A DNA stretch of 45,135 nt from an uncultured Gemmatimonadota bacterium (GTDB lineage: Bacteria; SM23-81; DAOVCL01), in assembly GCA_964626665.1 (NCBI GenBank), contig CAZVGK010000028.1:1-45135 (forward strand), in the 5' to 3' direction. Positions 18,937 through 44,941 of the stretch are shown in pieces (positions within the stretch are counted from its first letter, which is position 1; each line of letters starts with the position of its first letter). The notes under the pieces were generated by a model. That model was not told the DNA's origin and made no database searches. It saw nothing but the letters and a program-made list of their open reading frames with translations. The translations under genes and the position numbers were made by a program.

Positions 18937-19398
18937 TCATTCCTCAAGCATTACTGTATCCACCGGCTTGGGGCCCTTGACGGAGAGAAACGCTGCCGGC
19001 TCATCCCCGATGTTCTCAAATGTGTGGGGGATGTCCATCTTCCCCTGGATGACATCCCCGGATACGGCCACCAGCGCCTTATTACCCACCTTGAACTTGA
19101 TCCTGCCCTTGAGGATGAAGAAGAGTTCATCTGTTGTCGGATGCTTGTGCAGGGGCACCCTTTTGCCCACAGGCAGATTGTAGATATATGGCTGAATCCC
19201 CGAGTAATCGCCGAAGAAGGGGTTGACATCCACTTCATCACCGTAGGAGAGCTTCTGTCCATGGTGCATATGGATTAGCTCCTGCTCAGCGGTGATCTCC
19301 ACAAATTTCTCCCGCGGCGCCCCACAGTTGGGGCATTTCTCGGGAGGTTGGTCGCCGGTGTGCACATAACCACAGACGGTGCAACGCCACTTTTTCAT
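18937..19398 (-). CDS. Rubredoxin-like domain fused to a cupin domain
   Basis: WRCTVCGY...CPNCGAP, then cupin metal motif HKHPTTDELF...PHTFEN. Confidence 0.88.
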   Translation of the reverse strand: MKKWRCTVCGYVHTGDQPPEKCPNCGAPREKFVEITAEQELIHMHHGQKLSYGDEVDVNPFFGDYSGIQPYIYNLPVGKRVPLHKHPTTDELFFILKGRIKFKVGNKALVAVSGDVIQGKMDIPHTFENIGDEPAAFLSVKGPKPVDTVMLEE

Positions 19399-30070: not shown

Positions 30071-30730
30071 CTAAAGGGGCCAGGTGTCCATATTATACAT
30101 CGCCTCCCAGTAGGTATGTTCGTATCTGCTGGCGGTAGTAAATATCTCTCTCAATTTCTCATAGGGAAAACCCTTACCTGCCTTATCTACAAGCTCTCTC
30201 ATCCTGCTCACCAAATTTAGATAAGGTTCTGATAAATATACCGTAGCCCACTCCACATACAGCCTATTCCCATTTTTGCTCAGTTTGTCTTTATGGCGCG
30301 CGGCAATTTCGGCATAGGACCAAAAACAGGGCAGGATGGAGGTGATAGATTCCGCATAGGACCTTAAAGAACTGGTGGAGAGGAGAAAACTTGTGTAGGA
30401 GATGTTCACCGGCAGGGGTTCAATGCTGATCGCATCCTTCAGAGAATATCCCAACTTCTCCAGGAACTCCTCATAACCCTTAAACTCACTTTCTGACTCC
30501 AGCCATAATATCTCGATAACCTCTCTCATCGCATTTAGGGAGTTAGCCCGGGAGGATATTATACTGAGGTTTTTTATGGCCGAGACAAGATAATTGTAGT
30601 CTTGCAGGATATAGAATTTGAACTTCTCCAGCGGCAGAATGCCGTCATAAAGTTCTACTACAAAGGGGTGTTCAATTATTCCTTCCCATATGTGGTTTGC
30701 GTCTGATCTTAGCCTTTGCGAAACTTTCAT
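30071..30730 (-). CDS. tenA: TenA family thiaminase II / aminopyrimidine aminohydrolase
   Basis: HPFV, FKFYILQDYNYL, ILPCFWSY (catalytic Cys), Y.EW...Y and E..YW. Confidence 0.92.
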   Translation of the reverse strand: MKVSQRLRSDANHIWEGIIEHPFVVELYDGILPLEKFKFYILQDYNYLVSAIKNLSIISSRANSLNAMREVIEILWLESESEFKGYEEFLEKLGYSLKDAISIEPLPVNISYTSFLLSTSSLRSYAESITSILPCFWSYAEIAARHKDKLSKNGNRLYVEWATVYLSEPYLNLVSRMRELVDKAGKGFPYEKLREIFTTASRYEHTYWEAMYNMDTWPL

Positions 30731-32193
30731 GGTTTTCTCCCCTGAACCACTATGTAATCCCCTTTTTCATACCCCTCTATTGGTTCCTCTATTCCGTTGT
30801 TAGTATATCTGGGATGTTTTGTCAGGGTTTGCACATATTTTAAATCGACAAAACCGGCCTCCTTTAGCAAATTACTGACTTCCCGGGTCGAATGCCAATG
30901 GGTCCCTTTGATAAACTTAAGAGGATAAGGATTGGGGGGGGCAGTTTCGGGATCGTGTTTCCCCCGAAGATAAGCCAAATCATACATCATCGCATAGGAA
31001 CCTTCCCTGGCCAAAAAGGAGACGACGATATGCCCATTAGGTTTTAAGATGCGATAGGCTTCCCTTACTGCCTTTTGGGGGTCATCCACATAACTAAGGA
31101 TAGTGCTCAGCAAGACCGTATCAAATCTCTCATCTTCAAAAGGAACTTCTTCAGCAACACCTATTTTTACTTTAATCCCCCTTTTCTCCGCTAATTTGGC
31201 CATCTCCTTTGCGGGTTCTACCCCATGTTCAATCCCCAACCGGGAAGCAAACAATCCGTCTCCCACTCCAATGCTCACGGAATTATTTGGGTTAGATAAA
31301 AAATGTTTCTCCGTCAAGAGCTCGGATTCAAAGACAACCTGGTTCTGGCTAAACCAGCGATCAAAATCCGCTGCGGCCTCCTCAAAAGCGGAAATCTTCA
31401 GAGGTTCAATGTTATGGTATAGGGGGCCGTGGCCCTTGCCTATGTTGCCTGGTGCATTCCTTATGGCCCTCGTAATGTAGTCCTTTGCCACTTTGACTGC
31501 GTCGTGAATACTCATTCCTTTAGATAATCCAGCAGTTATCGCCGCCGAGAGTGTGCAGCCCGTGCCATGGGTATTTTCCGTAGCCACCCTTTCCGCTTCA
31601 TAGTAGGTGTATTCTTCCCCATCAAAGAGAAGGTCAATAGCTTTCTCCCCAGAGAGGTGTCCTCCTTTCAGCAGGACAAACCTTGCCCCATTCCCTTGGA
31701 TGATTTTAGCCGATTCTTGGGCATCTTCGATACCCATTATCTCCATCCCACTAATTATCTCCGCTTCAAAGACATTAGGGGTAATGAGAAAGGCTACAGG
31801 CAATAATCCCGCAATAAGGGCACTTTCCGCATCCTCTCTAAGGAGACGAGCACCACTTTTGGCCACCATAACTGGATCCACTACCAATTTCTCTATTCTG
31901 TATTTCTTAACTTTGTCAATAATCACTTCTATTATATCTTTATTGGAGACCATCCCTGTCTTTGCTGCATCTGTCCCCATATCTTCCATTATCATATCTA
32001 TCTGATCCCCCACAATGTCTGGAGATATATCGTGGATAGAACGCACTCCCTGGGTGTTCTGCGATGTTACAGATGTAACCACAGACATTCCAAAGCAATT
32101 AAAGGCTTGAAAGGTCTTTAAATCTGCCTGTATGCCAGCCCCTCCCCCTGAATCAGAGCCGGCAATAGTTAAAGCTTTACCTTCATAGTTCAT
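30727..32193 (-). CDS. thiD: HMP/HMP-P kinase ThiD fused to a class I SAM-dependent methyltransferase
   Basis: TIAGSDSGGGAGIQADLKT, VVDPVM, ITPN..EA, LLKGGH and THGTGC. C-terminal half has SIGVGDGLFA, GVEPA, AEEVPF....FD and YRILKPNG. Confidence 0.9.
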   Translation of the reverse strand: MNYEGKALTIAGSDSGGGAGIQADLKTFQAFNCFGMSVVTSVTSQNTQGVRSIHDISPDIVGDQIDMIMEDMGTDAAKTGMVSNKDIIEVIIDKVKKYRIEKLVVDPVMVAKSGARLLREDAESALIAGLLPVAFLITPNVFEAEIISGMEIMGIEDAQESAKIIQGNGARFVLLKGGHLSGEKAIDLLFDGEEYTYYEAERVATENTHGTGCTLSAAITAGLSKGMSIHDAVKVAKDYITRAIRNAPGNIGKGHGPLYHNIEPLKISAFEEAAADFDRWFSQNQVVFESELLTEKHFLSNPNNSVSIGVGDGLFASRLGIEHGVEPAKEMAKLAEKRGIKVKIGVAEEVPFEDERFDTVLLSTILSYVDDPQKAVREAYRILKPNGHIVVSFLAREGSYAMMYDLAYLRGKHDPETAPPNPYPLKFIKGTHWHSTREVSNLLKEAGFVDLKYVQTLTKHPRYTNNGIEEPIEGYEKGDYIVVQGRKP

Positions 32194-32367: not shown

Positions 32368-32862
32368 CTACTCCTTTAAAGCCACCAACTCCCCGCTGAG
32401 CAGGGTGAGATGGCCCATCTCCTCTTTGATGATGTTCTCTACCTTATCTTTGCTCAACCCAGGCGTAACCATCTCCCTGATCCCCTGGTAGAAAACTATG
32501 GAATCCTTCTCCAAGCCAATGGCCATCCGTAGGATATCCTCCACCGACTCTTCTCCCGTCAACCATTCAGTGGGATCCTGGCGCAAATCAAATACCTGCC
32601 CATCGGCTATGGCCTGCAGATACCTGACCCCCTCACCGCTGGGATCAAAACCGCCCACCACCCCCTCCTTTCCGGAGAGGTCCTCCCTCAGGGAATGGAA
32701 GGTGCGTTCGTGCTCATCCTCCATAGCGGCAAGCCCGAGCAGCTTCTGCTCCACCCCAACATCCGAAACCCCCTGGGCTGCCTTCCGGTAGAACTTCGCC
32801 CCGTTGCGCTCGATCCGCTCGGCCATCTCTAAGATCTCATCGGCATTGAAACGGATGGTCAT
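32368..32862 (-). CDS. Rubrerythrin-like ferritin-family protein
   Basis: FNADEILEMA.RIE.NG..FY, MEDEH, LEKDSI.FY and EEMGH. Confidence 0.9.
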   Translation of the reverse strand: MTIRFNADEILEMAERIERNGAKFYRKAAQGVSDVGVEQKLLGLAAMEDEHERTFHSLREDLSGKEGVVGGFDPSGEGVRYLQAIADGQVFDLRQDPTEWLTGEESVEDILRMAIGLEKDSIVFYQGIREMVTPGLSKDKVENIIKEEMGHLTLLSGELVALKE

Positions 32863-33377
32863 CACTCCTCCTCCGACGGAGGGGGAGTGGAGGTGCGCGC
32901 CCCCAACTCCCTGTCCATCATAATCAAGCTATGACCAGAATCGCCAATCCACTCCAACATCTGAGCAACCTTGGAGGTAGAGGACTCCTCCTCCACCTGT
33001 TCGGTGACAAACCACTGCAAGAGAATGCCTGCGGCATGGTCACCCTCTTGAGCAGCAAGCCTCACCAGCTCATCTATCTTTGAGGTGATAAACTGCTCGT
33101 GCTGGTAGGCCTCCTGGAAAGCCTCCAAAGGTGATCTCCACTTCTTCTTTGGTTGAGCCAGGGGAAGCAGTTCCACTCTGCCGTCCCTTTTCTTGATATG
33201 ATCGAAGAACTTCATCGCATGGACAATCTCCTCCTGGGTCTGGGCCCTCATCCATTGAGCCATTCCATCCAGGCCCTGGGAATGGAAGTAGGCAGCCATT
33301 GAGAGGTAAAGGTAAGCGGATTCCAGCTCGTGTTTGATCTGCTGGTTTATCGCCTCCTCCATCTTCTTTCCGATCAT
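32862..33377 (-). CDS. ftnA: Non-heme ferritin
   Basis: [32 protein letters not shown] and [11 protein letters not shown]. The ATG overlaps the dfx stop. Confidence 0.95.
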
Positions 33378-33760
33378 CTTCCCTCCTCTACTTTCCAAAG
33401 CCCGTGCAGGTTGCAGTTGGCGCGAGCGGTCACCTCTGCGGTTGGCACAGCAAAACTTGCCTCCGGCGGATCCCCTGGGTTGAGAAACTGGCGATAGGCA
33501 ATCCCATCGGCTATGACCTCAATCCACTCGATGTAGTGGTCATCATTCATTGGATGGGGGACGCTCCCCACCGTTACCTTCACCCCCTCCTTGGTCCTCT
33601 CCACCACAGGAACATGCTTCTCCTGGGCAGCGTCCACCGAATTCTCCCTTAGGAGAGTCATCGGTTGTCCACAGCAGACAAGCTGCCCCTTTCCGGAATG
33701 CAGGACCTCCACGATGTTCCCGCATATCTCACATTTGTAAACCTGCAGTCTCTCAGTCAT
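33374..33760 (-). CDS. dfx: Desulfoferrodoxin (2Fe superoxide reductase)
   Basis: CEICGN...CCGQPM desulforedoxin domain; EKHVP, HPM...HYIEWI and CNLHGLW. Confidence 0.97.
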
Positions 33761-33885
33761 TTTTACCTCCTGTTATTTTTCTTCTAACCTGCCAGTTCAC
33801 CACGGAATCTGGCGGAATCGCACTTGTGTAGTTAAGGCTCCTCCACTTAGGGGATTGAAAATAGAAATTGGAAAATGGAAACTCT

Positions 33886-33952
33886 TGAGCCGTCAGAACC
33901 CCGATTCTGACGGCAAAAGCTAGCAGTGGCAGAATCGGTGTTCTGCCACCTC
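33886..33952. repeat. Two-hairpin REP-like element (copy of 7806-7865)
   Basis: tgagccgtcaga..tctgacggc and gtggcagaa..ttctgccacctc. Confidence 0.75.
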
Positions 33953-33989
33953 AGGGGAAGAAACCCAACCACCCACGTTAATAGCCTGA

Positions 33990-35303
33990 CTATCCCCCCA
34001 GGATCTCCTTGATGTCCTCCGCGGGATCACCGATCAGCCGCAGATCGTAGCTCTCCTGGAGCACCTTGAGGATGTCATCGTTTACCCAGGCTGGCAGGAT
34101 GGGACCCAAATAAATCCCCTTTATCCCCAAGGAGAGGAGACTCCAGAGGATAGCCACCGCCTTCTGCTCCATCCAACTGAGGATCAGGGTCAGGGGAAGT
34201 TCGTTTATCCCCACTCCAAAGAGCTCCGCCAGGGCCTGAGCGATTTCTATGGCCACAATCGAGTCGTTGCATTGGCCCAGATCAATAAGCCTGGGGACCC
34301 CCTCTATCTCACCCAAATTTAGGTCATTGATCCGAAACTTGCCACAGGCTAAGGTTAAAACAACCGTATCCTGGGGCAGCTTTTGGACAAACTCCCGGTA
34401 GTAGCCTGCCTTCTTCAGAGGGGAATCACATCCCCCTACCAAGAAGAAGTGACGGATCTTGCCCGCCTCTACCAGTTGCTTGATCTTTCCTGCCAAGGAG
34501 AGAACGGCTGACTTGGAGAAGCCGGTGGTGAGCACCACATCTCCCTTGCTCTCCTCCAGTGCGGGCAGGGTCTTCGCCTTCTCGATCACCGGGGTGTAGT
34601 CATAACCGGGGATGTGCTCCACCCCAGGGAGTCGGGCCGGGCCCGTGGTAAACATCCTCTCCCTATACTCCTCCTTGGGAATGAGGACACAGTTCGAGGT
34701 CCCCAGGATGGCCACCGGATAACGGGAAAAGAGCCGCTTCTGATCGAACCAGGCCTTGCCCAGGTTGCCCACTAAATGCTCATACCTCTTCAGGCCCGGG
34801 TAGCCATGGGCGGGAAGAAGTTCCGAATGGGTGTAGACATTGATCCCCGTCCCTTTGGTTTGCTCCAACAGGGCAGCGAGGGCCTTCAACCCATGGCCGG
34901 TGGCGATGATCCCTTGTCCCTTCGCCGTTCCCGTCTGCACCTGGGTGGGCTCCGGCTCCCCATAGGTGTCGATATGGGCCTTTTTGAGAAGCCTCATCGT
35001 CCTCAGGTTCATCTCCCCGGCCTCCACGGCCAGGTGGACGAAGTCCTCTGCATCAAAGTTAACATTAGTAAATGTGGAGTAAAAGACCCTCTCCAAGAAC
35101 GCATCTATCTCAGTATCGGTATAGCCCAGCTCCCTGGCGTGGTAGAGGTAAGCGGCCATCCCCTTAGTGGCAAACATCAGATTATCCTGCAATCTGGCCA
35201 CCGTAGCCTCCTTCCCACAGACGCCCTTTACCGTGCAACCGGTCCCCCCTACAGTCTGAGAACACTGGTAACAGAACATATCCAAACTTTCTTTTTCAGC
35301 CAT
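33990..35303 (-). CDS. hcp: Hybrid cluster protein / hydroxylamine reductase (short, class III-like)
   Basis: MFCYQCSQT....GCT..GVCGK, YTHSE, TSNC, GGCD, ACGK, GQCND and SWMEQKA; 437 aa. Confidence 0.97.
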
Positions 35304-35305
35304 TT

Positions 35306-36028
35306 CTATCTCCCCTTTTTATAAAATGTCCCCACATTTGGATTCTCCTCTCCAAATTTTTCGACTAACTCCTTCAATAATTCACTTCCGGACTTTCCTT
35401 CTTTTTCAAGCTTCTTTATTAGCTGATACGCCCCAAAAAGAGGTGAAGGTCCAATCTCAGATGCAAAGATGCCGGCACCGTGATTCCAGACAAACATCGA
35501 AAAAAGCTCATCCAACTCAGCAATGGTAACACCCGCAGCGTAAGCTTTCACCAACTCACGGGTAGCCTGACGAAATCGACCGGCACCAACCCCATCGGCG
35601 AGGGAAAGCAGATATTTCGTCTTCTTGTCTATGGCAGGATTTCCCTTTCCCCAAACAAAGTCCCAGAAATGCACTACAATATTGGCAAGCGTATTGTCGA
35701 TATCCTTGAAATTAACCATTGCTGTCGGCTTGAGAGAAACTTCCATATCTCCAGGAGTGGTCGTCTCCTTTTTCTCCATCCGGTGAAAATATACCCGATA
35801 TTCGTTGTCCGAGACTTTCTCAGTCAGGTATTCAAAACCTAAATCCGCCAACGCAGAATACAGCGGAAGGGGCTCGAAGCTCTGAATTACACATATTTCC
35901 TCACCGACAGTAATATCTGCGGCTTTCTGGAGAACCATAGGCAAAAAGTTGCCCTTTAATTCTCTCGTATCAATTACCTCAAACCTTTCCTTCTTACTTT
36001 TCCATCCCCCTCCCTTTTTCTTAGTCAT
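35306..36028 (-). CDS. DUF2249-like domain plus AhpD/CMD-like helical domain protein
   Basis: IDTR...[16 protein letters not shown]-terminus; [14 protein letters not shown]...A..ELVKA..AG.T.AELDE C-terminus. Confidence 0.6.
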
Positions 36029-36063
36029 AACTTACCTCCCTTAATTTTATCCCGCAATCGGCC

Positions 36064-36567
36064 TCAGAATTTCTCAAACTTCTCCCTGGGCAGATTGCAT
36101 ACCGGACATCTTCCCGGGGGCTTCCCTATATGCGTATATCCGCAGATAGGACATATGTAAACCTCCTGGATCTCTATATCCCTGCCGCTACCCACCTGGG
36201 CCTTTGCCCTCTCGTAGAGCCCCTTGTGGATCTTCTCCGCCTCTAAGGCATAATGGATGACCCTCTCCGCCCCTTTCTCCCCCTGAAGCTGGGCGACCGC
36301 GCCATAGGTGGGATACATCTCCTCTATCTCAAAGGTTTCTCCTTCAACCCCCGCCTGGAGATTTTCTCCGGTCTCTTTGATCATCCCAAGAACTCTGGCG
36401 TGGTTTGTGGCATGCACCTGCTCGGCAAAGCCTATGGCCCTAAAGAGCCTGGCCACATTGGGAAATCCCTCCCCTGTGGCTGCCTCGCTGAAGGCCAGGT
36501 ATTTCATATGGGCCATAGATTCCCCAGCAAAGGCCTCTTGCAGGGCCTTCTCCGTCATCTTCCTCAT
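36064..36567 (-). CDS. rbr: Rubrerythrin
   Basis: AFAGES.A..KY, AEQVHA, GETFE..EMY, AEKIH and C-terminal CPICG...CPVC. Start MRKMT at 36567. Confidence 0.96.
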   Translation of the reverse strand: MRKMTEKALQEAFAGESMAHMKYLAFSEAATGEGFPNVARLFRAIGFAEQVHATNHARVLGMIKETGENLQAGVEGETFEIEEMYPTYGAVAQLQGEKGAERVIHYALEAEKIHKGLYERAKAQVGSGRDIEIQEVYICPICGYTHIGKPPGRCPVCNLPREKFEKF

Positions 36568-36580
36568 TCCATTCCCCCTC

Positions 36581-37222
36581 TTATAATTTGCGGTGGCAGA
36601 ACCACCAGTCAAAGCACTTGTATTCCTCCCCCCTGCGCTTGGCGGTCTCCTCATCAGTGGCCGGCGGGATGATCACCTCATCCTCGATCAGCTCGTTCTC
36701 CGGCCAGTTGGCCGGGACCGCCACTCCCTCCTTGTCCGTGACCTGTAACCCCTTGACCATTCTCACCACCTCACCCATATTCCTGCCCAGCTCCTGGGGG
36801 TAGTAGAGAATGGCCCTGATCACCCCTTGGGGGTCAACAATAAAGACCGCCCGCACCGTGTTCGTCCCCTTGCCCGGATGGATGAGGCCCAGCAATCCGG
36901 CCACCCTCCCGGTGTCATCAGCAATCACTGGAAACTGAATCTCGGTCTTCAGGTTGTCCCTGATCCACTCCACCCACTTGATGTGGGAGAAAACCTGATC
37001 GATGCTCAGCCCAATGAGCTCACAGTTTAACTTCTTTAGCTCGTCGTATCTTCGCTGGAAGCCCACGAACTCGGTGGTGCAAACCGGGGTAAAGTCCGCC
37101 GGATGGCTGAAGAAGACGAACCACTTCCCGGCATACTCTGCGGGCAAGTTTAGCTTGCCATGGGTCGTCTGCACCTCAATCTCAGGGAAACTCTCTCCAA
37201 TAAGTGGCATTTTGCCTTCCAT
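36581..37222 (-). CDS. Peroxiredoxin (Prx6/archaeal AhpC-type)
   Basis: [35 protein letters not shown] and CFDWWFC. Confidence 0.95.
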
Positions 37223-37237
37223 TTCATCCTCCTTTCC

Positions 37238-37741
37238 TCAATAGATGGGCCAAAACTTGTTGTCATACCAGATGCTCTCGGTCAGTTCCCGATCCAACTG
37301 GGAGAGAAAGGTCAAATGGGTCTTCTCCCAGTTGGCCAACCATTGATATAACTCCTGGGCCAGCGGATCGTCCGTTGATTTAGCGTTCTCCCCATAGAAC
37401 TGGACAGCCCTCTCCTCCATAGCCATCGCCGCAGATATGGCCGCCGCCTCATATCCCGCGGCGGAGATCTCCTCCTTAATCTTCTGCGTGATGACACCAC
37501 TGATCACATCAAGGGGTTTTCCCTCCTTTTGCACGGGCTTTAGCTTTCCCTCCCGCTTCAGATGGGCATATTGCTCGTTTAAGATCTCTATGTGCCTGCC
37601 CTCCTCAGCAGCCATGGCCTCAAATACCTGGCGGACCATCTCATTCTCAGCATTTTGGGCGGCCAGCTCATAGAACGATTTCCCCCTATGCTCCAGAAGG
37701 ATAGCCCCCTTGATTATCTCCAAGACCTTATCTTCTACCAT
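37238..37741 (-). CDS. Rubrerythrin-like ferritin-family protein
   Basis: AILLE..GKSFY, EEGRH, MEERAVQFY and WEKTH. Confidence 0.88.
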   Translation of the reverse strand: MVEDKVLEIIKGAILLEHRGKSFYELAAQNAENEMVRQVFEAMAAEEGRHIEILNEQYAHLKREGKLKPVQKEGKPLDVISGVITQKIKEEISAAGYEAAAISAAMAMEERAVQFYGENAKSTDDPLAQELYQWLANWEKTHLTFLSQLDRELTESIWYDNKFWPIY

Positions 37742-37756
37742 CTATCCCCCTTCAAC

Positions 37757-38449
37757 TTAATCCTTCACCAGCTCAAAATCCACCTTAGCCGCCCCACAAA
37801 TAGGGCAGACCCAATCATCGGGTATATCCTCAAAGGCCGTCCCTGGTTCAATCCCTGAATCGGGATCGCCCTTCTCCGGATCATAGATGTACCCGCAGAC
37901 CGTGCAGCGGTATTTCTCCACCTTACTCACCTCCTTTCCGTTCACCTCTTTAATGTAGGTGGGCGCGGACTTAGGGGACTTGCCCCTCTTTACCTGGTGA
38001 TAGTAAGTATAGGTCATCGGCGGGTTCTCATTGAGAATCTCCGCCCCTACCACCTTGCCAAAGAAGACAGTGTGAGTCCCCATCTCGGTGCTCTCCATTA
38101 GCTCGGCTTCAATGTGCCCCACCGAGTTCTCCAGCACAACAGGGGCTCCAGTTACACCAACTTCATACCTCACATCCTTGAACTTGTCTACCTCCCTCCC
38201 GGACTTAAAGCCAAACTGGCCGATAAACTTCATTGGCGTCTCCTCGGAGAGGATGGAGACCGCAAACACCTTCCCTTCCCTGATGAATTGGTTGGTTAAG
38301 TTCTGCTTGTTGATGCAGACCGCAATTACCGGAGGTTCCGCGCAGACCTGAAAAACGGTATTGGCAATCTGTCCATTTAGCTTTCCCCCCGCCTTCGCCC
38401 CGACCACATACATCCCGTAACCAATTTTATGTAGAGTCTTTAAGTTCAT
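37757..38449 (-). CDS. High-molecular-weight rubredoxin (flavin reductase + rubredoxin)
   Basis: [34 protein letters not shown]-terminal [10 protein letters not shown]...WVCPICG. Confidence 0.93.
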
Positions 38450-38529: not shown

Positions 38530-39516
38530 CTACAAGGGGTCACGGGGAACAGACCTGGTTGCTGCCAAGGTGAGCTCATCTCTCAGCGGATTGCCGGCCA
38601 GGAAATCCCTCAGGGAGTCGATGATTTCCCCTAACAGCTCCTCTGCCCTGTGGCTGAAGCCTCCCTTGAGGAGGCGCACCAACCTCTGCCGGCCATATTG
38701 TTCCCCTTTCCCATTCTCCGCCTCAATTAACCCATCCGAGAAGAGGAGAAGAATATCTCCCGGACCAAGCTTAACCTGTGCCTGTGAATAGGTCATCCCC
38801 TTATCAACGCCAAGGGGGAGTTGGGTTTCAGAGAGCTCCTGCACACCTCCTTGGCTGGAGAGAAGAAGGGGAGGTTCGTGACCGGCGGAGGTATAGAAAA
38901 GGAGGCCCTGCTGCAAAAGCCCTGAGAATAGGGTGATAAAGGCGACCTCCTTTTCACAATCCGCGGCCAGGGCCCGATTGAGCCTACCCACCAAATTGGC
39001 GGGAGAGAAGTTCTCCCGCCAGCCCTCACCTAAGGAGAGCTCAGAGAGATGGCCTATCTCCTCAGTCAACCGAGCTTTGAGGCCTGTAGCTTTCAAGCCG
39101 TGCCCCATCACATCAAAGAGCATAACCCCCAGGGCATTGTCACCCCTATCGCCTACCCAGGGGAAGGTGGTAAAGTAGTCACCACCGGTAAATCTTAGAG
39201 GAAGGGAGAGGGAAACTATCTCCACCTGGGGAATGGAATCGTTCTTCCGTAGGGGCAATCCCTCCGGCAGAGGGTAACTCACCTCCTTAGCGGAGATGCT
39301 CCCTCCCTCACCCTCATAGGAGAGCTTCCGCAGGGCCAACATCTCTTGCAGAAGCATCAGCTTATGTTTCCTCTCTTCCTCGGCAAGCTGCATAAGCAGA
39401 GCCTTTATCTCCTGGCGGGGGGAGAGACCGCTTGCCCTCCGATAGTAGTTGAAGGCTTCCACCTCCATCTGCAGCGCGCCGCGGAGGACCTTTATCAAGG
39501 GGAGGAGATCCCTCAC
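38530..39516 (-). CDS. Ferritin/rubrerythrin-like N-terminal domain fused to a SpoIIE/PP2C phosphatase
   Basis: N-terminus ALQMEVEAFNYY...LAEEERKH; PP2C motifs GGDYF, DVMGHG, SAGHEPP, FSDGL.EA and RDELT. Confidence 0.88.
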   Translation of the reverse strand: MRDLLPLIKVLRGALQMEVEAFNYYRRASGLSPRQEIKALLMQLAEEERKHKLMLLQEMLALRKLSYEGEGGSISAKEVSYPLPEGLPLRKNDSIPQVEIVSLSLPLRFTGGDYFTTFPWVGDRGDNALGVMLFDVMGHGLKATGLKARLTEEIGHLSELSLGEGWRENFSPANLVGRLNRALAADCEKEVAFITLFSGLLQQGLLFYTSAGHEPPLLLSSQGGVQELSETQLPLGVDKGMTYSQAQVKLGPGDILLLFSDGLIEAENGKGEQYGRQRLVRLLKGGFSHRAEELLGEIIDSLRDFLAGNPLRDELTLAATRSVPRDPL

Positions 39517-40160
39517 TCGACCTCCGCTGCCGCCAGGACCTGGTCCACAAAGGCCGGCTCCGGCAAGGCCCCCTCAAACTGCACCTTTTCATTTATGTCC
39601 ACCTTGGGAACGGCCTGCACGCGGTACCTATTGGAGAGATAGGGAAACTCGATGGCCTCGATCATATCAGCCACAATATGGTCGTTTTCCACCGCCAGCC
39701 GGTGGGCAAGCTGCACTGCCCGCGGGCAGTAGGGACAGGTAGGGGTGATAAAGACCTGGATATGCATCAGTTTATCCACAGTCTTTATCTTCCTCTTGCT
39801 GTCCGCGGAGAGGCCGGAATCCCGAAGCGATACCATAGAGATAGCCTCCAACAGGGACATAAACTCATACCCCGAGGGTATCCCATAGAACCTCATCCCG
39901 TAGTCCTTGGTCCCTTCTACGATGGTGGCGGGAATCTTATCCACCCCGTAGGCTGCGGCCTTTTCCTCGTCCACGGTGAAGTTGAAGGCCTGGAAACTGA
40001 GCTTGTCCGAAAGGGCGGTAACCTCCTCCAAAAGCCTGTGGGTCTGCTCACAATACTGGCACTCCAACTTCTGGGTGAAGAGGGTTAGCTTCACCTCGTC
40101 CTGCAACTTCTTGAACTCATCGCTGATGAACTTCTTATCCTCATCCTTGAGAAGATTCAT
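39513..40160 (-). CDS. Protein disulfide oxidoreductase (two thioredoxin folds; PDO/AhpF-NTD-like)
   Basis: CQYC and CPYC, GIPSGYEF, V.AVP and GALPE. Confidence 0.93.
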   Translation of the reverse strand: MNLLKDEDKKFISDEFKKLQDEVKLTLFTQKLECQYCEQTHRLLEEVTALSDKLSFQAFNFTVDEEKAAAYGVDKIPATIVEGTKDYGMRFYGIPSGYEFMSLLEAISMVSLRDSGLSADSKRKIKTVDKLMHIQVFITPTCPYCPRAVQLAHRLAVENDHIVADMIEAIEFPYLSNRYRVQAVPKVDINEKVQFEGALPEPAFVDQVLAAAEVE

Positions 40161-40698: not shown

Positions 40699-41493
40699 TC
40701 ATTTCATCCTCTGGCAATGGGGGCAAAAGTAGGTGCTCCGCCCTGACTGTCTGATCCTCTCTATGGGATGACCACAATTGGGGCAGGGTTCCTCTGCCCT
40801 CCCATATACCTGCAACAGCTTCTGATAATTGCCTTTACCCCCCTCGGTATCAAGATAATTGTCTATCGTGGTGCCCTTCTCCTGAACAGCCTTGCTTAAG
40901 ATGGCTTTCGTCTTGGCCGCCAGCCTATCGGTTTCCCCCCGGCTTAGGGTATTTGCCCTCCTTTGGGGATGGATGCCTGCGGAGAAGAGGATCTCTGCGG
41001 CATATATATTTCCTATCCCAGCAATCCTCCCCTGATCCATAAGGAATTCCTTTATCCTCCGCAAGCTCCTCCGGGTAATCTGATAGAGGTAACCCTCGTT
41101 GAATTCCGGGCTCAAGGGCTCAACCCCCAAACCGGAGAGCAGATTCAGGTCTTCACTTACCATAAGGGTGCCAAACCTACGCTGATCTATCCAGCAAAGG
41201 TCCCCCCCACTCATATGGAAAATGGCCCGCAGGTGCTTAAGAGAGTTTCCATCTATATGCCAGGAAAATTGCCCTGTCATCCGAGGGTGAGCTATCAGGT
41301 AGAGGGTCCCCCCAAAGCCAAAGATGATGTTCTTTCCTCTCCGCCGAAGCGAGGAAATAACTCCTCCTCTTATTCTCTCTATCGCTTGGCCCTGCAGCTT
41401 AGGGTCCAAAATATCCACCCCTTTCACCCTTTGGCCTAGAACCCTATTCCTTAATTGGCGGGTGATGGTCTCTACCTCGGGCAATTCAGGCAC
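40699..41493 (-). CDS. mutM: Formamidopyrimidine-DNA glycosylase
   Basis: (M)PELPEVET, RRGK, H.RMTG, D.RRFG, GIGNIYA.E and zinc finger CPNC...CPHCQ. GTG start at 41493 overlaps the 3' end of the Fur/PerR gene. Confidence 0.97.
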   Translation of the reverse strand: MPELPEVETITRQLRNRVLGQRVKGVDILDPKLQGQAIERIRGGVISSLRRRGKNIIFGFGGTLYLIAHPRMTGQFSWHIDGNSLKHLRAIFHMSGGDLCWIDQRRFGTLMVSEDLNLLSGLGVEPLSPEFNEGYLYQITRRSLRRIKEFLMDQGRIAGIGNIYAAEILFSAGIHPQRRANTLSRGETDRLAAKTKAILSKAVQEKGTTIDNYLDTEGGKGNYQKLLQVYGRAEEPCPNCGHPIERIRQSGRSTYFCPHCQRMK

Positions 41494-41905
41494 TCCCCTC
41501 CTCCTTTTGACATCTAGCACAGAGACCATAGAAGTAGGCTTGCACCATCTCTATCTTATGCCCATCAACATATCCCTTCTTTGTCCAGGGACAGTCCACT
41601 TCCACATCGTAGATATGCTGACAGCGGCGGCAGAAGAAGTGGTGGTGAGGTTCCGGCCTGGGGTCATAGTGCGCCTTTTCCTTCTCGATGGTGAGCTCCT
41701 GAATAATCCCTGCCTTCTTGAGCACCTGGAGCGTGTTGTAGACCGTGGCCTTGGAGAAGGTGGGATACTGACCCTTAAGGGCCTCATAGATCTCCTCCAC
41801 CGTAGGATGGGTGATGCTCTTCTCCAGATACTCCAAAACCACCAGCCTTTGGATGGTAGGGGCTATTCCCCTCTCTTTTAACCTCTCTATCCTCTTCTGA
41901 CACAT
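41486..41905 (-). CDS. Fur/PerR family transcriptional repressor
   Basis: T.QR..VL, HPTVEEIY, S.ATVYNTL, HHHFFCRRC..IYDV and GLCARC. The Asp after CxxC and the gene context favour PerR. Confidence 0.93.
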   Translation of the reverse strand: MCQKRIERLKERGIAPTIQRLVVLEYLEKSITHPTVEEIYEALKGQYPTFSKATVYNTLQVLKKAGIIQELTIEKEKAHYDPRPEPHHHFFCRRCQHIYDVEVDCPWTKKGYVDGHKIEMVQAYFYGLCARCQKEEGSA

Positions 41906-41926: not shown

Positions 41927-41963
41927 TTAGACTGAATATAAACCAAGAATTTTTCTCTGTCAA
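41927..41963 (-). promoter_or_regulatory. Sigma70 promoter with an overlapping Per/Fur-box-like site
   Basis: TTGACA (41963-41958)-17 nt-TATATT (41940-41935). TTAGACTGAATATAA at 41927-41941 matches the Bacillus Per box TTATAATnATTATAA at 11/14 positions. Confidence 0.7.
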
Positions 41964-43234: not shown

Positions 43235-43276
43235 GTGGAGCGGCAGCGATGGTGTATGTTAAGTAGGAAAGGGGCG

Positions 43277-43367
43277 GGCTAACAATTCGCTTAAGCGGAC
43301 GCCGGAGGATGGGCGAAAATCAAATTGATGGGACGTGCTGGCACCGCTTAGCTCAAAGCCGTTAAGC
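43277..43367 (+). other. attC site of cassette 1
   Basis: R'' GGCTAAC, L arms GCTTAAGCGG / CCGCTTAGC, R' GTTAAGC. Confidence 0.88.
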
Positions 43368-43630
43368 TGCCTGCGGCGGCTTAACGGGGCGCGAGAATGA
43401 ACCATCCCGCGGTTGACCACCACAGGCGGCCTAACCTTGGGATGGAACCGACACCGCTGCGCGGCTTCACCTTCGCTCGCTTTGCTCTGGTCGAAAATCA
43501 TGCTCTCAATAATGTCCATTATTATACTTATCCCACGCGTATCTCTATATTGCTGATCGAGGATTTGAACCCAAGCTTTGCATGATTTTCTCCCGACGCA
43601 AAGTGCGGCTCATCTCGCCCCCCGTTAGCC
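43361..43630 (+). repeat. ORF-less cassette with long double-armed attC, copy 1
   Basis: Two R''-like boxes (43379-43385, 43429-43435), internal stem GAAAATCATGC/GCATGATTTTC, R' GTTAGCC at 43624. Repeated at 44226-44496. Confidence 0.8.
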
Positions 43631-44232: not shown

Positions 44233-44496
44233 CGCCTGCGGCGGCATAATGGGGCGCGGAAATGAACCATCCCTCAATTGGTCGCCACAGGCGGCATAAC
44301 CTCGGGATGGAACCGACACCGCTGCGCGGCTTCACCTTCGCTCGCTTTGCTCTGGTCGAAAATCATGCTTTCAATAATGTCCATTACCATACTCATTCCA
44401 TGCGTATCTCTATATTGCTGACTGTGGATTTGAACCCAGGCTCTGCATGATTTTCTCCCGACGCAAAGTGCGGCACATTCCCGCGCCCCGTTATCT
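44226..44496 (+). repeat. ORF-less cassette with long double-armed attC, copy 2
   Basis: Colinear and highly similar to 43361-43630; R'' boxes GCATAAT and GCATAAC, R' GTTATCT at 44490. Confidence 0.8.
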
Positions 44497-44524
44497 GCAA
44501 GAAATGGGGAGTTAGCATACGAAG

Positions 44525-44941
44525 GTGGAACTAAAAATATCTGACGTCTTTGCCGAATCAGCGAACCGTCTTCCAAAAACCGCGAAGGCGAAGCTTATCA
44601 AGGTGTTCATGCTACTGACAAACAACCCAAGGCATCCCTCCCTGCATTTGAAGAAGATCCAAGGTTCTGCCCGCGATGACATCTACGAATGTCGAGTTGA
44701 CAAATCTTGGCGGTTAGTCGTTCAAGATCTTGGCGGTATGCTATTTCAGCTTGTTTACGTCGGTGCGCATGACGAAGCCATCGAGTACGGGGCAGTGGTG
44801 TGTGAGTCTGTAGCCCCGTACGCGAGTAGGCTACCTGCTCTCGAGCACGTTAAGTCGTATCTGGCCGGGGACAACAAAGCATTGAAGTTCAGGCAGATCG
44901 CTCTCCGAGAACTCTGTGCCTTTCTTGAAAATTATGAGTAA
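44525..44941 (+). CDS. RelE/ParE-fold toxin-like protein with C-terminal extension
   Basis: F..S...L, NPRHPSLHLKKI.G....YECRVDKSWRLV, YVG.HDE. Confidence 0.7.
   Translation: MELKISDVFAESANRLPKTAKAKLIKVFMLLTNNPRHPSLHLKKIQGSARDDIYECRVDKSWRLVVQDLGGMLFQLVYVGAHDEAIEYGAVVCESVAPYASRLPALEHVKSYLAGDNKALKFRQIALRELCAFLENYE

Follow-up and report, generated by a model that had tools for sequence, protein, structure and literature searches.

The fusion gene and its neighbourhood

The window, by which we mean the whole stretch of 45,135 nucleotides analysed here, comes from an uncultured Gemmatimonadota bacterium. On its minus strand, a two-helix ferritin-like hairpin is joined in one gene to a SpoIIE-type PP2C/PPM domain. 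The features at and around this fusion gene are listed below.

32368..37741, minus strand: genes for a four-helix erythrin, peroxiredoxin, rubrerythrin, DUF2249 protein, hybrid-cluster protein, desulfoferrodoxin, ferritin and a second erythrin, co-oriented and downstream
37757..38449, minus strand: flavin reductase-rubredoxin fusion, the downstream neighbour, 80 nt from the fusion gene
38530..39516, minus strand: fusion gene (ferritin-like hairpin, linker, SpoIIE/PP2C domain), 328 aa, GTG start
38551..39225, minus strand: predicted SpoIIE-type PP2C/PPM domain, residues 98-322, with D113, D135, D261 and D313, and E314 where SpoIIE has a second Asp
39226..39318, minus strand: extended linker, residues 67-97, coil and a short strand with conserved P84, lacking the canonical Q-x-x-x-LLP helix motif
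39319..39504, minus strand: two-helix ferritin-like hairpin, residues 5-66, with E18, Y25, E47, E48, R49, H51 and E58, drawn from AlphaFold2 helices, conservation in 113 of 113 homologues and profile matches to erythrin and EncFtn structures
39513..40160, minus strand: protein disulfide oxidoreductase, the upstream neighbour, gap -4 (TIGR02187, 282.6 bits, cut-off 185)
39521..39525, minus strand: Shine-Dalgarno-like GGAGG, 4 nt before the GTG start and inside the 3' end of the upstream gene
41486..41905, minus strand: Fur-family regulator at the head of the run (PF01475, E 2.9e-25), probably PerR-like by context
41935..41963, minus strand: candidate sigma-70-like promoter upstream of the Fur-family gene, 11 of 12 consensus matches, a consensus match only

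The genes of the run follow in the order Fur-family regulator, mutM, rseC, disulfide oxidoreductase, fusion, flavin reductase-rubredoxin, erythrin, peroxiredoxin, rubrerythrin, hybrid-cluster protein, desulfoferrodoxin and ferritin, all on the same strand. Farther along the window come Fe-S genes and the gene of a flavodiiron protein. The fusion gene runs over the stop of the disulfide oxidoreductase gene, as an initial sequence-only reading of this DNA had noticed, with 4 nt in common (GTGA). Sigma-70-like sites number 12, against 10.5 expected in shuffles.

The wider stretch 13181-41905 (minus strand, ~29 kb) is mostly co-oriented, and genes for iron and oxidative-stress functions abound in it: several ferritin-like proteins, two peroxiredoxins, the flavodiiron protein, NifU/cysteine desulfurase/DsrE, and ZIP and ArsP-HMA transporters, with interspersed thiamine-salvage genes. 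It also includes a ThiD-type phosphomethylpyrimidine kinase that carries a fused class I methyltransferase domain (30727-32193, minus), a rubredoxin-like and cupin protein (18937-19398, minus) and, immediately upstream of the gene for the hybrid-cluster protein, a DUF2249 protein whose C-terminal part has no annotation (35306-36028, minus). Two similar stretches with near-identical ORF translations (43259-43585 and 44262-44576) surround a small DUF4258-like gene pair and possibly belong to a repeat element. The disulfide oxidoreductase gene adjoins the fusion only in the window and in locus L001.

The sequence-only reading had placed one E...ExxH helix pair in the first ~65 residues, and this holds: the translation has QMEVEAFNYY at residues 16-25 and EEERKH at residues 46-51, and the full-length AlphaFold2 model (24-row alignment, mean pLDDT 90) shows helices 5-31 and 35-66, an extended linker, then a PP2C fold, with no transmembrane segment. 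The Pfam SpoIIE profile matches residues 126-320 (E 3.6e-39, 135 bits against a cut-off of 25). The Rubrerythrin profile matches residues 9-62 (E 1.6e-4) at 22.5 bits, just below its cut-off of 22.8, and this match covers profile positions 1-56 of 137, that is, half of the domain. EncFtn-like matches residues 14-56 below cut-off (E 0.003). These three are the only Pfam matches at E<=0.1, and the N-terminal domain of RsbU is not among them.

The fusion family and its ferritin-like hairpin

A protein search with 8000 scored candidates listed 120 matches, of which the first 113 are fusions aligned from the N-terminus (one a 252-aa partial sequence) and the last seven are GAF-SpoIIE proteins. Nine hairpin residues (A14, E18, A21, Y25, E47, E48, R49, H51 and E58) are invariant in the alignment of all 113, several of which share with the window protein E18/Y25/E48/H51 at only 32-36% identity. 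The same four residues are kept in 20 of 20 full-length 50%-cluster representatives (motif-anchored, none dropped). Mean conservation in the 113-row alignment is higher in the hairpin (0.71) than in the PP2C domain (0.59), and in linker residues 67-97 it is 0.50 with no invariant column; the spacing from the His to the first Asp is constant within 4 residues in 107 of 111 sequences.

The genome scan gave 49 loci, 42 with the fusion (including L008, which ends at a contig edge, and L042, interrupted by a run of N) and 7 that match the hairpin only. Among the record titles are Zixiibacteriota, Krumholzibacteriota, Eisenbacteria, division B38 and 'Ignavibacteria', beside many unclassified MAGs. 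The L041 record is titled Patescibacteria; its fusion is a 100/100 sister to that of L031 within a Krumholzibacteriota-like clade, and the contig is possibly mis-binned. The ligands are thus conserved in homologues, and the domain-architecture and homologue search reveals a family spread over several candidate phyla in place of a one-off deletion product. A chance fusion, a deletion product or a degenerate functionless hairpin might be suspected from the single-sequence Rubrerythrin score just below cut-off, and from the full-length gene being present in only three of seven genomes of the window's own phylum (incomplete assemblies, a set that may overlap the 42-locus scan and is not added to it). 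The invariant ligands of 113 homologues, the 42 genome loci and the fixed spacing refute this explanation, which we consider extremely improbable.

The sequence-only reading knew of no characterised protein of this architecture, and none has come to light: among the matches listed in targeted literature searches outside subscription journals there was no study of a half-ferritin-PP2C protein, only automatic database labels. ESM Atlas holds a 59-member cluster with the automatic name Rubrerythrin/SpoIIE, so the architecture has already been labelled by machine. A 2025 survey of bacterial PP2C domain architectures contains neither 'rubrerythrin' nor 'ferritin' in its text or one supplement; the accessible part of a rubrerythrin phylogeny (PMC5114695) contains neither 'phosphatase' nor 'SpoIIE'; and the accessible text of a hemerythrin-sensor review (PMC9388753), in which the diiron sensor domains covered are hemerythrins, contains neither 'ferritin' nor 'rubrerythrin'. 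The combination of half a ferritin with a SpoIIE-type phosphatase is a real, conserved and apparently unstudied family.

The spacing of E18, Y25, E48 and H51 (+7/+30/+33) equals that of EncFtn E32, Y39, E62 and H65. There is one conserved ExxH per chain, and six further ExxH strings in the 113 homologues lie at unaligned, unconserved places. Since each chain has one ligand set, a complete four-helix dimetal site would need a second chain. In EncFtn, the two chains of a dimer form the diiron site where they meet, and the dimer becomes more stable when Fe2+ binds (PMC5012862). A two-copy prediction for the fusion (113-row alignment, 2 Fe) scored 0.36, 0.49 and 0.40 in three runs, with a median of 0.40 against a mark of 0.42 and 0.00 for three controls, and is counted neither way.

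Modelling and profile scores alike support the claim that the N-terminus is ferritin-like. A structure-database profile of 39 N-termini matched erythrin 2fzf (E 7.5e-10) and EncFtn 5n5e (E 1.3e-5), and also EncB and the designed four-helix-bundle model 1mft; the Mn-peptide design 5c39 scored like natural proteins. Of the best 150 of 2845 matches of the N-terminal profile among 1.84 billion representatives, 124 were erythrin-like proteins of 138-280 aa with two repeats, 20 were full-length fusions and the other six were fragments; no other single-hairpin architecture occurred among these 150. The six (P0123, P0130, P0131, P0140, P0226 and P0228) are short single-stretch matches that read as fragments or truncations of the fusion, and are excluded from representative counts. 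None of 169 candidate longer proteins (567-2000 aa) had the hairpin, which is weak evidence. Modelled alone, the hairpin reached a mean pLDDT of 83; the 20 Foldseek matches listed were 18 EncFtn-type chains, 1mft and a Mn catalase, with a best E of 0.014, so that none of them reached E 0.001. A wide VIA search with this model was uninformative, with unrelated helical hairpins ranking level with EncB (Z 9.8-10.1).

The hairpin had been likened to the neighbouring rubrerythrin-like proteins. The ferritin-like helix pair stands; the closer likeness is to erythrin and EncFtn. Rubrerythrins have two helix pairs, an extra Glu at E+3 with a role in peroxidase turnover, and a rubredoxin-like domain, and the window's own rubrerythrin shows all three. 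The fusion has one pair, Ala at this position (residue 21) in all 113 sequences and no RUBY_RBDX match in Pfam, and its identification as a rubrerythrin was rejected. An EncFtn or encapsulin cargo was also rejected, as the entry and exit sites are largely missing and the 99.65% complete genome (G000) has no match to encapsulin PF04454. At the equivalents of entry-site residues E31 and E34, the 113 fusions have R94/K16 at position 17 and E69/D20/A14 at position 20; at the outer/exit-site equivalents they have Q104 at position 43 and K64/R45 at position 50, and only E47 is kept.

Which metal the hairpin would bind is left unfixed by the E/E/H ligand set, since EncFtn was assembled with Zn and Co too (PMC5012862) and the Mn-peptide design scored alike. 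The hairpin might sense or hold Mn or Zn, or serve as a small sink for peroxide or iron, shielding or supplying the PP2C Mn site with no redox signalling. The appearance of 5c39 and Mn catalase among the matches agrees with another metal, as do the ZIP and ArsP-HMA transporters that recur among the fusion neighbours. However, Fe-dependent O2/ROS enzymes and ferritins dominate the neighbourhood, and the hairpin has an invariant Ala where the window's rubrerythrin has Glu; we regard these alternatives as unlikely.

Genomic context, partner-switching genes and the phosphatase domain

Within 5 kb of the fusion, iron or oxidative-stress genes were found at 31 of 43 genome loci (the window counted among them) and at 13 of 22 metagenome loci; for ordinary SpoIIE loci the figure was 0 of 58. 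The context profiles derive from these same neighbourhoods and from the own genome, the control loci belong to other taxa, part of the metagenome loci repeat genome loci and many contigs are short. L002 and L025 count as stress-linked only via rubredoxin-like neighbours, and since kin share context, the locus counts are not independent events. Within the same distance, the 43 genome loci have Fur/PerR in 16 cases, flavodiiron protein in 11 and peroxiredoxin in 10. Eleven loci without stress neighbours form one nested clade (support 92/93; 42-row tree, L042 omitted), which fits an old association followed by one relocation. At the new site the fusion mostly adjoins pyrF and a PTS IIA gene, and all hairpin ligands are kept. 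In the sister group of this clade, a 111-123-aa rubredoxin-like protein is encoded divergently from the fusion (L006:9328-9660, L002, L003).

We also observed a 7-1-7 AT-rich palindrome at the Fur/PerR promoter in 11 of 20 regions (L010, L022, L023, L028, L031, L033, L035, L036, L040, L041 and L085; no shuffle control), which resembles a Per/Fur box. Neither the window nor L001 showed it, and no copy turned up ahead of the fusion in 19 loci of the Zixibacteria clade.

These promoters, together with the Fur-family gene that heads the run in 16 of 43 loci, would suit a purely transcriptional control by the operon's Fur/PerR-family regulator, with the metal-bridged bundle as a constitutive dimeriser and the phosphatase on whenever it is made. 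Invariant ligands suit such a structural site equally well, and a dimer alone is enough for PP2C activation (PMC5468089; PMC12143880). On the other hand, the relocated clade retains every ligand with no such palindrome upstream, so regulation there would lie elsewhere, and a metal-dependent clamp would still sense metal when metal is scarce. In addition, E47 and E58 are present in 20 of 20 fusion representatives, and R49 in 17 of 20 versus 19 of 120 and 18 of 122 in the two erythrin halves, a comparison set chosen with the fusion family's own profile. This family-wide conservation of non-ligand residues suggests that E47, R49, E58 and Q43, which are retained more often than in erythrins, may provide a surface for coupling. 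We consider a permanent clamp rather unlikely.

The sequence-only reading saw no STAS or anti-sigma partner in the window, and the profile search agrees, with no STAS or RsbW-like match on the contig. RsbV-like and RsbW-like genes, for which it had proposed a genome search, are indeed present elsewhere: the own genome has 4 SpoIIE domains, 6 STAS matches, 3 RsbW-like matches over cut-off and 11 sigma-70 r2 matches over cut-off, and its other three SpoIIE phosphatases adjoin STAS and RsbW-like genes. Its STAS proteins include one of 112 aa (G000:C2, where an RsbW-like kinase is also encoded) and one of 114 aa (G000:C26). RsbW-like ATPase domains occur in 42 of 42 carrier genomes, but also in 11 of 14 control genomes. 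Ordinary SpoIIE loci have a STAS or RsbW gene within 5 kb in 28 of 58 cases, whereas the fusion has one at a single genome locus of 43 and at none of the 22 metagenome loci. Context therefore gives no support to a STAS substrate, and one encoded in trans is possible. As a precedent, sigma-B of C. difficile co-controls a reverse rubrerythrin (PMC11481553). Elsewhere in the genome, L068:5146-7926 (G000:C29) encodes a 926-aa protein with RsbW-like ATPase, Cache, HAMP, SpoIIE and HTH parts, adjoining a ParA-like ATPase and a STAS protein; its SpoIIE-plus-tail part recurs in L029.

The C-terminal part of the fusion has, by sequence and model, the SpoIIE-type PP2C/PPM fold with intact metal aspartates, and is a putative Mn/Mg-dependent Ser/Thr phosphatase. 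Foldseek with the full model retrieved SpoIIE 5ucg (E 7e-13), and also Rv1364c, RssB and SiaA. D113, D135, D261 and D313 align with SpoIIE D610, D628, D746 and D795 (D610 numbering derived from the 5mqh alignment), the last three of which are the named SpoIIE metal ligands (PMC5468089), and are kept in 112 of 113 homologues, the exception being the 252-aa partial sequence. Among 20 representatives, regular expressions found GD and SDG in 20, DxxGH in 19 and the terminal motif in 17. C187 (38956-38958), kept in 101 of 113 homologues, is a possible second redox-sensitive point.

The domain had been described as a full RsbU-type phosphatase, which is right for the catalytic part and weaker than stated for the linker. 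Both SpoIIE and RsbU are turned on by dimerisation through switch helices (PMC5468089; PMC12143880), and in RsbU the linker that does this is a crossing coiled coil (PMC12143880). Ahead of the PP2C core, the Q-x-x-x-LLP helix motif occurs in 1 of 109 evaluable fusions (of 113) versus 24 of 45 evaluable controls (of 58), a proxy whose control count is too low, since some controls have QxxSLP; and residues 67-97 are coil and strand, not an alpha-helical linker, in the AlphaFold2 monomer. Without the canonical linker motif the fusion is not an RsbU, its coiled-coil mechanism cannot be assumed, and the coupling geometry must differ.

The best PDB sequence match of the PP2C domain is P. aeruginosa RssB (E 8e-21), and the second residue of the terminal DD motif is Glu (E314) in 100 of 113 homologues. 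Together with the near lack of STAS neighbours, this could point to an adaptor or pseudo-phosphatase like RssB, or to another phosphoprotein target, with an iron site that could still gate. The four SpoIIE-aligned aspartates and the Asp found at the second DD position in 12 of 113 members speak against this, and we hold the adaptor or other-target explanation to be quite unlikely.

Possible redox gating and comparison with known systems

Three of the four grounds on which, in its own terms, the sequence-only reading would fail were examined (modelling, ligands and one-off origin), and none refuted it. Its idea of an iron- or peroxide-sensing phosphatase gains from the architecture, the invariant ligands, the intact PP2C aspartates, the oxidative-stress context and the partner-switching genes in trans, and loses in the analogy with RsbU. 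We somewhat favour a metal- or redox-gated PPM phosphatase, in which two hairpins would build one dimetal, probably diiron, site whose loading or oxidation would gate the PP2C domain. Each chain would bring half of a ferritin-like site (E18, E48 and H51, with Y25), and two hairpins would pair into a four-helix bundle with a symmetric, most likely diiron, centre like that of encapsulated ferritin. When this centre takes up Fe(II), or is oxidised by O2 or H2O2, the association of the two chains would change; via the ~30-residue linker this would move the PP2C switch helices and so alter metal binding and activity. In an EncFtn-like dimer one C-terminus would emerge at each end of the bundle, and this would account for the linker being long, extended and constant in length. 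The likely output would be dephosphorylation of an RsbV-like STAS protein encoded elsewhere, which would feed a partner-switching cascade in oxygen or iron stress.

Ferritin-like folds are known as stores and detoxifying enzymes. We speculate, with slightly less than even confidence, that here a ferritin-like diiron centre acts as a signal receptor between two enzyme copies, so that iron loading or oxidation would be a PP2C dimerisation switch beside PerR, in a geometry unlike the RsbU coiled coil. From half an iron-binding unit on a phosphatase, usually among oxygen-defence genes, an iron- or oxygen-dependent stress switch may follow, and the fusion may let cells turn a stress response on or off by iron or oxygen. 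If true, this would be a PPM phosphatase whose regulation does without the coiled-coil linker that has been proposed as a general feature (PMC12143880). In uncultured phyla, about whose signalling little is known, it would add a post-translational response to oxygen or iron, and in uncultured candidate phyla O2 and iron would be sensed through protein phosphorylation alongside PerR. The family is a direct test case for a ferritin-type site as a switch, being a small protein with no predicted transmembrane segment and obvious ligand mutants.

The closest sequence relatives of the hairpin, among the best 150 of 2845 matches, are two-repeat four-helix proteins of the erythrin/rubrerythrin family (2fzf type, presumably labelled COG1633), from which the fusion differs by its one repeat, the lack of a rubredoxin domain and Ala where rubrerythrin has its extra Glu. 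EncFtn (R. rubrum Rru_A0973, P. furiosus PFC_05175, M. xanthus EncB/EncC) is a two-helix unit with the same E/Y/E/H spacing and gave the top Foldseek matches among those listed. In contrast to EncFtn, the fusion is joined to a signalling enzyme, has Arg or Lys for entry-site E31, retains of exit residues H57/E61/E64 only E61 (E47 in the fusion), scores far below the Pfam and NCBIfam EncFtn cut-offs and has no encapsulin in its genome.

With B. subtilis RsbU and SpoIIE and P. aeruginosa RssB, the fusion has in common the SpoIIE-type fold, the metal aspartates and a small helical N-terminal module; it differs in that this module is half of a metal site, and in lacking the canonical linker helix motif and RsbT or STAS neighbours. 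The tardigrade RvFeMP-1 and Deinococcus DRB0118 metabolite phosphatases also combine a ferritin-like dimetal site with phosphatase activity in a stress context (PMC11616004), but there the ferritin-like site is the catalyst, whereas in the fusion it is a separate module on a PP2C domain. The parallel for the proposed role is found in the hemerythrin sensors (DcrH, Bhr-DGC, Bhr-HD-GYP), where a non-heme diiron domain gates output by redox state; Bhr-HD-GYP is active in the ferrous and inactive in the ferric form (PMC9388753). These sensors have another fold, with His-rich ligands within one chain, and their outputs are chemotaxis or c-di-GMP. It is credible that the fusion is a variant of the sensor-PPM phosphatases with an iron or redox switch.
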